A stretch of 33,719 bases of DNA from Escherichia coli (lineage in GTDB: Bacteria > Pseudomonadota > Gammaproteobacteria > Enterobacterales > Enterobacteriaceae), in the NCBI RefSeq assembly GCF_003334315.1, contig NZ_QOWR01000051.1; one strand, written 5' to 3'. The first letter of the stretch is position 1, and every line of letters begins with the position of its first letter. The notes beneath the pieces were generated by a model. It was not told the origin of the DNA, did no database searches, and saw only the letters and a list, made by a program, of their open reading frames with translations. Below are positions 11,980-14,039 of the stretch, piece after piece. The position numbers and the translations under genes were made by a program.

Positions 11980-13170
11980 ATGTTTGAGAACATTACCGCC
12001 GCTCCTGCCGACCCGATTCTGGGCCTGGCCGATCTGTTTCGTGCCGATGAACGTCCCGGCAAAATTAACCTCGGGATTGGTGTCTATAAAGATGAGACGG
12101 GCAAAACCCCGGTACTGACCAGCGTGAAAAAGGCTGAACAGTATCTGCTCGAAAATGAAACCACCAAAAATTACCTCGGCATTGACGGCATCCCTGAATT
12201 TGGTCGCTGCACTCAGGAACTGCTGTTTGGTAAAGGTAGCGCCCTGATCAATGACAAACGTGCTCGCACGGCACAGACTCCGGGGGGCACTGGCGCACTA
12301 CGCGTAGCTGCCGATTTCCTGGCAAAAAATACCAGCGTTAAGCGAGTGTGGGTGAGCAACCCAAGCTGGCCGAACCATAAGAGCGTCTTTAACTCTGCAG
12401 GTCTGGAAGTTCGTGAATACGCTTATTATGATGCGGAAAATCACACTCTTGACTTCGATGCACTGATTAACAGCCTGAATGAAGCTCAGGCTGGCGACGT
12501 AGTGCTGTTCCATGGCTGCTGCCATAACCCAACCGGTATCGACCCTACGCTGGAACAATGGCAGACACTGGCACAACTCTCCGTTGAGAAAGGCTGGTTA
12601 CCGCTGTTTGACTTCGCTTACCAGGGTTTTGCCCGTGGTCTGGAAGAAGATGCTGAAGGACTGCGCGCTTTCGCGGCTATGCATAAAGAGCTGATTGTTG
12701 CCAGTTCCTACTCTAAAAACTTTGGCCTGTACAACGAGCGTGTTGGCGCTTGTACTCTGGTTGCTGCCGACAGTGAAACCGTTGATCGCGCATTCAGCCA
12801 AATGAAAGCGGCGATTCGCGCTAACTACTCTAACCCACCAGCACACGGCGCTTCTGTTGTTGCCACCATCCTGAGCAACGATGCGTTACGTGCGATTTGG
12901 GAACAAGAGCTGACTGATATGCGCCAGCGTATTCAGCGTATGCGTCAGTTGTTCGTCAATACGCTGCAGGAAAAAGGCGCAAACCGCGACTTCAGCTTTA
13001 TCATCAAACAGAACGGCATGTTCTCCTTCAGTGGCCTGACAAAAGAACAAGTGCTGCGTCTGCGCGAAGAGTTTGGCGTATATGCGGTTGCTTCTGGTCG
13101 CGTAAATGTGGCCGGGATGACACCAGATAACATGGCTCCGCTGTGCGAAGCGATTGTGGCAGTGCTGTAA
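11980..13170 (+). CDS. aspC: Aspartate aminotransferase
   Basis: 396 aa starting [21 protein letters not shown], with the PLP-lysine context [14 protein letters not shown]; matches AspC. Confidence 0.95.
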
Positions 13171-13186
13171 GCATTAAAAACAATGA

Positions 13187-13206
13187 AGCCCGCTGAAAAG
13201 CGGGCT
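13187..13206 (-). terminator. Hairpin with U-tract on the minus strand (candidate ycbL terminator)
   Basis: Stem agcccgct / agcgggct with loop gaaa; on the minus strand it is followed by tcattgttttt, while the plus-strand side lacks a T-run. Confidence 0.45.
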
Positions 13207-13230
13207 GAGACTGATGACAAACGTAACATT

Positions 13231-13330
13231 GCCTGATGCGCTACGCTTATCAGGCCTACGCGTCCCCTGCAATATTTTGAATTTGCACGATTTTGTAGGC
13301 CGGATAAGGCGCTCGTGCCGCATCCGGCAT
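13231..13330. repeat. REP/BIME element (two inverted REP units)
   Basis: gcctgatgcgctacgcttatcaggcctac (13231-13259) and gtaggccggataaggcgctcgtgccgcatccggcat (13295-13330) are typical REP palindromes in opposite orientation. Confidence 0.8.
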
Positions 13331-13359
13331 AAACAAAGCGCACTTTGCCAGAAATCCAG

Positions 13360-13386
13360 GCCCGCATTAAAAGCGGGCTTTTTTAT
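13360..13386 (+). terminator. Intrinsic terminator on the plus strand (candidate aspC terminator)
   Basis: Stem gcccgc / gcgggc with loop attaaaa, followed by ttttttat; sits 6 bp from the ycbL stop. Confidence 0.6.
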
Positions 13387-13391
13387 GTGCC

Positions 13392-14039
13392 TTACCAGAC
13401 GGGCATTTCGTCTTGCAGGAAGGGATTATGCAGGCGTTCATAACCAAGTGTGGATAATGGTCCGTGACCCGGAATAAATGTCACGTCATCCCCCAGTGGC
13501 AGCAATTTATCTTTGATTGAAGAAATCAGTTGATTATGATCGCCACGCGGGAAGTCACTGCGCCCTACTCCGCCTTTGAAAATAACATCGCCAGAAATCA
13601 GCAGCTTTGCCCGATCATCAAAAAACACTACATGACCCGGCGTATGCCCAGGGCAATGTAACACCTGTAAAGTCACATTCCCTATGCTGATGGTATCGCC
13701 TTCGTTCAGCCAACGATCTGGCGTCAGCGGCTGGCACTCTTCCAGACCAAACATACGACTTTGCGCAGGCAAGCCTTGCAGCCAGAACTCATCTTCTTTT
13801 TCCGGGCCAAAAACTGGCACGCCGTAATGTTGCGCCAGTTCCGCCGCTGCGCCAACGTGGTCCAGATGACCATGCGTCAGCAGGATCTGCATCAGTGTCA
13901 GGCCGCTGTCATCAACTTCCTGTTTGATTTTTTCCGCATCGCCGCCAGGATCGACCAGTGCGGCCAGACGGGTTTGTTCACACCAGATTAATGAACAGTT
14001 CTGGGAGAATGCGGTGACCGGAATAATACGATAGTTCAT
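13392..14039 (-). CDS. ycbL: Metallo-beta-lactamase fold glyoxalase II-like hydrolase
   Basis: 215 aa with the LLTHGHLDH metal-binding motif; matches E. coli YcbL (GloC) in length and sequence. Confidence 0.9.

Follow-up and report, generated by a model that had tools for sequence, protein, structure and literature searches.

BIME-1 elements of E. coli, also termed RIP or RIB, are defined by a Y REP and a Z1 REP that are inverted relative to each other, a long conserved L linker and an IHF-type site (Ton-Hoang et al. 2012, PMC3333891, summarising Gilson 1991; Boccard & Prentki 1993; Oppenheim 1993). They resemble the REPINs mobilised by RAYT (TnpA-REP), in which two inverted REPs give a long hairpin (Bertels & Rainey 2011; Nunvar 2010), and like them are non-autonomous, slow-spreading and vertically persistent. 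Papers on BIMEs, REPINs and RAYTs describe the insertion mechanism as unknown or 'semi-random', and a 2026 preprint still treats the way in which REP/BIME elements choose targets and insert as not established; transposition of the IS200/IS605 type, which relies on Y1 enzymes, leaves no target duplication. The closest precedent that we found for the arrangement reported below is YPAL/RU-2 of Yersinia, a palindromic intergenic element of ~160 bp that is summarised as generating target duplications of 3-26 bp at targets that extend across dyad symmetries or adjoin them (De Gregorio et al. 2006, cited by Delihas 2008, PMC2229807). As portrayed in that summary, YPAL/RU-2 shares with the BIME-1 sites a duplication of variable length at dyad symmetries, but it belongs to another sequence family and another host genus, and the summary reports no REPs in it. 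Messenger RNA 3' ends of the malE-malF type are reportedly stabilised by REPs, which lie, as at the locus described here, in the 3' untranslated region downstream of a well-expressed gene. Convergent genes may also share overlapping bidirectional intrinsic terminators, of which 306 have been detected experimentally in K-12 (Harris et al. 2026, Table S16).

We analyzed a 33,719-nt stretch of DNA (the window) from an E. coli strain that is not K-12 and that shares 99.3% identity with K-12 across the aspC-gloC stretch. In this window, aspC ends at 13170 on the plus strand and gloC (ycbL) at 13392 on the minus strand, leaving a convergent gap of 221 bp (13171-13391). The original prediction had described this gap as a REP/BIME element comprising two inverted REPs, accompanied by two hairpins; all of these were recovered (Table 1), and the element proved to be a BIME-1. 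The origin of the layout had escaped that prediction: one terminator was split and duplicated by an insertion. The evidence presented below makes it likely that a BIME-1 inserted in a bidirectional terminator shared by both genes, duplicating its hairpin, and that both mRNAs have their working 3' boundary at the left hairpin copy (hairpin 1), with the BIME as a passenger and not a determinant of the ends.

Table 1. Features of the convergent aspC-gloC gap and of the two genes that border it (window positions).
Feature	Position	Strand	Basis
aspC CDS (aspartate aminotransferase), upstream convergent gene	11980..13170	+	396-aa ORF; aspC in matching RefSeq genomes
A-rich stretch of the plus strand, U-rich tail UCAUUGUUUUUAAUGC of hairpin 1 for gloC-direction RNA; left half inherited from the ancestral bidirectional terminator	13171..13186	-	Identical bases beside the single hairpin of short-allele strains
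Hairpin 1 (stem of 8 bp, loop GAAA), the left-hand copy of the stem-loop of the ancestral terminator	13187..13206	.	Terminator scan and folding; K-12 3' ends at window 13210 (aspC) and 13183 (ycbKL)
BIME-1 (RIP/RIB, REPIN-type), 153 bp	13207..13359	+	Missing from short-allele E. coli and outgroups; 88% identity to consensus
Conserved outer motif beside Z1 REP, GAGACTGATGACAAACGTAACAT; one element terminus	13207..13229	+	Same position in all full-length copies; weak complementarity to other terminus
REP, short Z1 type, ending GGCCTAC	13230..13259	+	Sequence TGCCTGATGCGCTACGCTTATCAGGCCTAC
Long linker L, 35 bp, with IHF-consensus-like site ATTCAAAATATTG	13260..13294	.	Linker conserved across copies; site at 13270-13282, minus strand
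REP, Y type, inverted, head to head with Z1 REP	13295..13329	-	Sequence GTAGGCCGGATAAGGCGCTCGTGCCGCATCCGGCA
Conserved outer motif beside Y REP, TAAACAAAGCGCACTTTGCCAGAAATCCAG; other element terminus	13330..13359	+	
Hairpin 2, right stem-loop copy with the hairpin 1 stem and loop ATTAAAA; intact here, broken by C-to-A in K-12	13360..13379	.	
T-run and tail TTTTTTATGTGCC; right half inherited from the ancestral bidirectional terminator	13379..13391	+	
gloC (ycbL) CDS, convergent partner	13392..14039	-	215-aa ORF; RefSeq annotation

The element is a member of BIME-1, a known object that shows nothing structurally different from the described form. It presents the same inverted Y and Z1 REPs, conserved L linker and IHF-type site, its REPs facing each other head to head as a short GCCTGATGCG...TATCAGGCCTAC unit and an inverted GCCGGATGCG...TATCCGGCCTAC unit. 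We take these REPs to be of the Z1 and Y types, respectively, as judged by their sequence. Exact matches to the REP head motif TATCMGGCCTAC are confined to these two REPs in the 33.7-kb window, with 0.14 matches expected by chance. The linker is long and conserved, and its ATTCAAAATATTG segment lies one mismatch away from the IHF consensus WATCAANNNNTTR, making it a possible IHF site, at a level of similarity that is not significant alone (31 matches in the window, against 26 expected). Furthermore, the element is a single 153-bp unit, not a tandem array, and units of equal length with the same end motifs occur at at least 11 other sites; the 153-bp consensus used here was built from 11 other copies. 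The two termini are weakly complementary, at 12 of 18 positions in the consensus and 9 of 18 in the window copy. In at least two E. coli strains, MS6192 (NZ_CP054940.1; locus L003, 1-600) and GPEC389, the Z1 REP of this same aspC-gloC BIME-1 is itself interrupted, at about window position 13255, by the IS110-family element IS621, with an end junction at which ...TCTAC meets GCGTCCCC. IS621 targets REPs.

The candidate IHF site raises the question of whether the BIME-1 is retained for a function at the DNA level, such as IHF binding or a gyrase-related or topological barrier between convergent units, and is not a neutral passenger. We consider this doubtful. BIME-1 linkers often carry IHF sites (Ton-Hoang et al. 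2012, PMC3333891), convergent gene pairs bearing REPs are more highly expressed genome-wide (Harris et al. 2026), and the element is ~99% conserved among long-allele strains, all of which would agree with such a role; conservation of this kind, however, may merely reflect recent common descent, and the element is absent from about half of E. coli genomes and from most related genera.

The two hairpins that enclose the BIME-1 are copies of each other in their stems. Hairpin 1 (AGCCCGCT-GAAA-AGCGGGCT, -15.4 kcal/mol) is followed by a T-rich tail on the minus strand only (TCATTGTTTTT), its plus-strand follower being GAGACTGATG, whereas hairpin 2 (GCCCGC-ATTAAAA-GCGGGC, -13.6 kcal/mol) has a run of six T behind it on the plus strand and CTGGATTTCTGG on the minus strand. 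The hallmark of intrinsic terminators, a GC-rich stem-loop running straight into a U-tract, is thus seen when hairpin 1 is read from the minus strand or hairpin 2 from the plus strand; read the other way, neither hairpin has a U-tract directly after it. A terminator scan called both hairpins in exactly these orientations, which agree with those originally predicted for the aspC-side U-tract and the ycbL-side T-run, and hairpin 2 with the T-run at 13379-13391 is predicted to be a canonical intrinsic terminator for read-through in the aspC direction. Both strands of the gap fold far more stably than their shuffles (z = -5.6 and -4.4). The copies have identical stems and include an exact 11-bp repeat, AAAAGCGGGCT, at a spacing of 173 bp, and their loops differ (TGAAAA vs ATTAAAA), a difference that simple fill-in duplication does not predict.

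The lowest-energy fold of the whole gap pairs 13186-13194, in the left arm of hairpin 1, with 13372-13380, in the right arm of hairpin 2, and the BIME thereby comes to lie within a super-hairpin of ~190 nt. Because the duplicated hairpin is palindromic, its copies are also inverted repeats of each other, and such a super-hairpin may favour precise excision or cruciform formation. A weak hairpin, GTGCC...GGGCAT (13387-13406, plus strand), lies just within the 3' end of gloC and precedes the Rho-dependent 3' end mapped on the aspC strand in K-12 (984273, window ~13416).

Published maps of K-12 transcript ends cover this locus, and their MG1655 coordinates were converted as window position = 13170 + (984519 - K-12 coordinate). 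In Term-seq data (Adams et al. 2021, supplementary file 1), the sole 'primary' aspC 3' end maps to 984479 in two conditions, which corresponds to window position 13210, 4 nt beyond the proximal hairpin 1. Consistent with this position, entry 69 of Table S16 (Harris et al. 2026), a list that we infer from its format to be the SEnd-seq list of Ju et al. 2019, reports a 29-nt overlap between the aspC and ycbK-ycbL transcripts (984478-984506) in both log and stationary phase. This overlap is centred on hairpin 1, with the aspC end at 984478 and the ycbK-ycbL end at 984506, 4 nt past hairpin 1 in the opposite direction, after hairpin 2 and the BIME have been crossed. In K-12, these data show that hairpin 1 marks the ends of both convergent mRNAs. 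Hairpin 1 of the long allele differs from textbook bidirectional terminators in having no T-run on the aspC side (one A in the 5' flank of Table S16), and the aspC 3' end is nonetheless located at it; both termination and trimming could place an end 4 nt beyond a stem. Experiments with bicyclomycin (Adams et al. 2021) further reveal Rho-dependent termination on both strands, for aspC transcription at 984273 (-), which is 25 nt into gloC, and for gloC transcription at 984537 (+), 18 nt into aspC, and therefore some polymerases from each side traverse the whole gap.

All of these transcript-end data come from K-12, in which hairpin 2 is defective. K-12 strains carry a C-to-A change in its left arm (window 13363; NC_000913.3 ~984326) that lowers its predicted stability to about -8 from -13.6 kcal/mol and collapses the hairpin, which fits both the absence of a 3' end at that position in K-12 and the Rho-dependent site 25 nt inside gloC. 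The intact form found in the window strain is the majority form, present in at least 2,644 of the ~3,190 genomes carrying that flank. Since hairpin 2 is intact in the window strain and mutated in K-12, a fraction of aspC transcripts may well stop there in the former. Our literature search returned no paper naming aspC together with ycbL.

These maps also bear on the original prediction that both transcripts traverse the REP pair before terminating at the distal hairpin with a U-tract, the REPs acting as stabilisers of the 3' ends, an account that we now regard as quite unlikely. The sequence geometry is as that prediction described, each U-tract-bearing hairpin lying beyond the REP pair from the gene that it would terminate, and the gloC half of the prediction stands, given that the K-12 ycbKL end lies at the distal hairpin 1. 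In its favour, too, some aspC transcription crosses the entire gap to the Rho-dependent site at 984273, and hairpin 2 with its U6 would form a canonical terminator in the window strain. The aspC half, however, does not hold in K-12, where two independent data sets place the dominant aspC end at the proximal hairpin. Proximal ends of both transcripts had been named as the result that would contradict the prediction, and K-12 thus shows half of that result. Moreover, K-12 Term-seq shows zero peaks between 984300 and 984478, that is, none at the REPs or at hairpin 2, among the uniquely aligned reads to which its peak calling is restricted and with which ends inside repeats could be under-called. 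Because no 3' end is reported at either REP or hairpin 2, the mapped ends are not REP-stabilised; unlike those of the malE-malF type, they lie at a terminator-derived hairpin and not at the feet of REPs, and the REPs are downstream of the main aspC end.

The insertion of a BIME-1 in a shared terminator, the reading that we favour, draws on the comparison of alleles at this locus. The full 451-bp query is present in 2,811 of 5,426 complete E. coli genomes, and partial matches at the aspC-gloC locus span ~172 bp less among the matches listed. In this short allele, the gap measures 50 bp and contains one hairpin, AGCCCGCTGAAAAGCGGGCT, with an A-run side, AAAAACAATGA, and a T-run side, TTTTTATG; judged by its bases, it is a classic bidirectional intrinsic terminator common to both convergent genes, with the textbook order of A-run, hairpin and T-run. 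The additional 173 bp of the long allele consist of the 153-bp BIME-1 and a second copy of the stem-loop, the BIME-1 sitting between the stem and the T-run of the ancestral terminator. With an insertion at this point, the left copy keeps the A-run only and the right copy the T-run only, and each U-tract-bearing hairpin is therefore distal to the gene that it faces.

We surveyed outgroups by scanning for AspC in one genome per species, which yielded 80 Enterobacterales loci, with aspC and gloC adjacent and convergent in most. In the ~70 species of Enterobacterales other than E. coli in which the two genes are neighbours, the gap mostly measures ~40-100 bp, and a single A-run/hairpin/T-run is found in 30 of the 35 outgroup gaps listed. 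Because the short single-hairpin form prevails in these outgroups, the comparison of sequences shows the short form to be ancestral and the long form to be an insertion. Within E. coli, short alleles are diverse, share at most 97.3% identity with the long allele and differ from it at flanking sites, and for this reason they give no sign of recent excision. The outgroups led us to reject the opposite polarity as very improbable; on that view the long form came first, and slipped-strand deletion between the 11-bp direct repeats AAAAGCGGGCT gave rise to the short one. Slippage between these repeats would generate exactly the short allele, and excision of whole BIME-1 units has reportedly been seen in natural isolates; nevertheless, the short single-hairpin form is the rule in Citrobacter, Enterobacter, Klebsiella, Kosakonia and many others, and the short E. 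coli alleles differ among themselves and at flanking SNPs.

Two other derivations of the right-hand hairpin were discarded. A search with 13326-13395 for a source from which hairpin 2 and its right flank might have been copied recovered only the generic BIME-1 end motif as a recurring sequence, the hairpins being locus-specific. The notion that the left hairpin was copied in inverted form to give the right one, with reverse-complementary loops, does not fit the E. coli sites and suits only an element of Dryocola boscaweniae. This ~150-bp element (L064, 3691-3895) lies in the aspC-gloC terminator between hairpin copies with reverse-complement loops (ATAA / TTAT), and has BIME-1-like termini, GAGAATGATGACAAG ... 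TTTGTCTGCAATCTGA, around a non-REP interior. The aspC-gloC gaps of seven other Enterobacteriaceae loci have been repeatedly colonised by other REP-type palindromes, located between the aspC stop codon and the terminator and devoid of hairpin duplication, one of them as a 474-bp array.

A small RNA gene at this locus was rejected as very improbable: although Rfam RF02751 (ES036/CssrF), the sole family to reach its gathering score in the whole window, matches 13252-13294 on the minus strand (53 bits vs a threshold of 37.6), the match covers generic BIME-1 linker and part of the Z1 REP, the scan gave no promoter-like site in or near it and no K-12 3' end maps within it. RF02751 appears to model a segment of the repeat element, in which case every BIME-1 copy should match it.

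The sequence of events at this locus may be reconstructed as follows. The ancestral aspC-gloC gap, ~50 bp long, contained a lone GC hairpin, preceded by an A-run and followed by a T-run, as a bidirectional intrinsic terminator common to both genes. In the lineage of the window strain, a 153-bp BIME-1 landed between the stem and the T-run and is bordered by a ~20-bp stem-loop copy on each side, so that the left copy provides a U-tract for gloC-direction RNA only and the right copy for aspC-direction RNA only. In K-12, and presumably in the window strain, polymerases moving in the gloC direction traverse hairpin 2 and then the BIME before halting at hairpin 1, which has a U-rich tail for them; likewise, the 3' end of the abundant aspC mRNA lies 4 nt beyond hairpin 1 in K-12 and would be expected there in the window strain. 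Because no U-tract follows hairpin 1 in RNA made in the aspC direction, this aspC end is most likely the product of 3'-to-5' trimming to a protective stem or of termination aided by convergent transcription. Transcription continuing from aspC would be halted at hairpin 2 and its U6 in the window strain and, in K-12, where hairpin 2 is mutated, by Rho just inside gloC. The BIME would lie mainly within the gloC 3' UTR, as a passenger that possibly binds IHF.

Duplicated hairpins are not restricted to aspC-gloC. Local hairpins are duplicated on the flanks of BIME-1 at 8 of ~15 sites in at least four genera, a tally made up of 11 sites and four extra K-12 sites. As a control, the similarity of the left to the right flank was compared with that of flanks from different sites, and it exceeded all 110 cross-site comparisons in 7 of the 11 sites. 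Three metagenome contigs in which a BIME-1 is bordered on its left by the flank of one site and on its right by that of a different site were excluded from the site count; they are probably assembly chimeras across the repeat, real recombination between copies being the alternative. At sites without duplication, a hairpin still adjoins one end of the element. In a 100-kb unbiased sample of K-12 there was only one full BIME-1 (yiiF-fdhE), with no duplication, and pattern scans of viral contigs for BIME-1 found none.

Filled and empty sites could be compared at four convergent gene pairs, aspC-gloC, artJ-rlmC, prohibitin-tkt and narP-ccmH, and each empty site has exactly one hairpin copy. At artJ-rlmC, the empty allele reads AGCCGCACCTGCGGCTT followed by T-rich sequence, and the filled K-12 allele reads AGCCGCAACCGCGGCTT, 153 bp and AGCCGCACATGCGGCTT followed by the same T-rich sequence. 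At prohibitin-tkt, the GGGCCGCTTTCGCGGCCCTT hairpin of the empty allele is found on both sides of the 153-bp element in the filled allele. At both of these sites the filled alleles exceed the query by 153 bp, and the empty alleles fall short of it by the length of precisely one hairpin (17 or 20 bp). In E. coli the narP-ccmH site is empty and has the hairpin once; in a metagenomic relative, a BIME-1 lies between two copies of that hairpin. Further cases have no empty-site partner: two related hairpins with the same loop at rsmS-mscK of K-12, a perfect 22-bp flanking repeat, GGCCAGCAATGCTGGCCTGTGG, at a Citrobacter youngae copy, and two AGCCAGC...GCTGGCT hairpins flanking a Superficieibacter copy. 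Furthermore, Pseudocitrobacter faecalis harbors an independent, oppositely oriented BIME-1 in the same aspC-gloC terminator, with the hairpin on both sides.

Across sites, the duplication measures 17-22 bp and tracks the hairpin instead of being fixed, in contrast with transposition of the IS200/IS605 type, and the hairpin copies usually have identical stems and different loops. Possible sources of the loop differences are selection on the stems, the survival of interrupted repeats that resist slippage, or a feature of the insertion process itself. The recurrent flanking duplication suggests structure-guided insertion of BIME-1 at terminators. We advance only tentatively, as a possibility that we would not yet bet on, the more specific proposal that BIME-1 (REPIN-type) insertion is not semi-random, targeting GC-rich terminator-like hairpins and duplicating exactly that hairpin, with a length of 17-22 bp set by the stem-loop and no fixed stagger. 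If general and previously undescribed, the hairpin duplication would be the footprint of an insertion mechanism involving cleavage at the feet of an extruded hairpin, plausibly by a hairpin-recognising RAYT, and hairpin targeting, if true, would explain the enrichment of REPs at 3' ends and between convergent genes. In the literature within reach, which does not include the oldest BIME papers, we found no description of a BIME-1 inside a former bidirectional terminator with a duplicated hairpin, and we claim no priority.

As a feature, the gap is ordinary: its element is known, and public K-12 data already cover the locus. The least ordinary finding is the recurrence of the duplicated hairpins; this footprint and the origin of the layout in a split and duplicated bidirectional terminator deserve systematic follow-up. 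No special regulatory logic is needed for the aspC-gloC layout, which is the scar left in a shared terminator by a mobile repeat; in K-12, the old hairpin still sets the mRNA ends. The locus also offers natural matched alleles with and without a BIME-1, each in thousands of sequenced strains, that can be used to measure the effect of BIME-1 on convergent genes, and the hairpin duplication, if it extends genome-wide, would give a testable handle on target choice and insertion by REP/BIME elements.

Two additional elements were observed at other loci. A third allele of artJ-rlmC, seen in E. coli MB165 by comparison with DH1, has a clearly diverged BIME-1 and no left hairpin copy, TAATT being directly followed by GAGACTG; it derives from a deletion long ago or from another insertion into this site. 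The K-12 glnA-glnL gap (L213, 6448-6577) contains a degenerate BIME-1-like element whose outer motif adjoins the glnA terminator hairpin, at a boundary between TTTGTCAGCTATCTGT and AGCCCATCTCTGCATGGGCTTTTTT, and which therefore lies within the annotated GlnZ small RNA.
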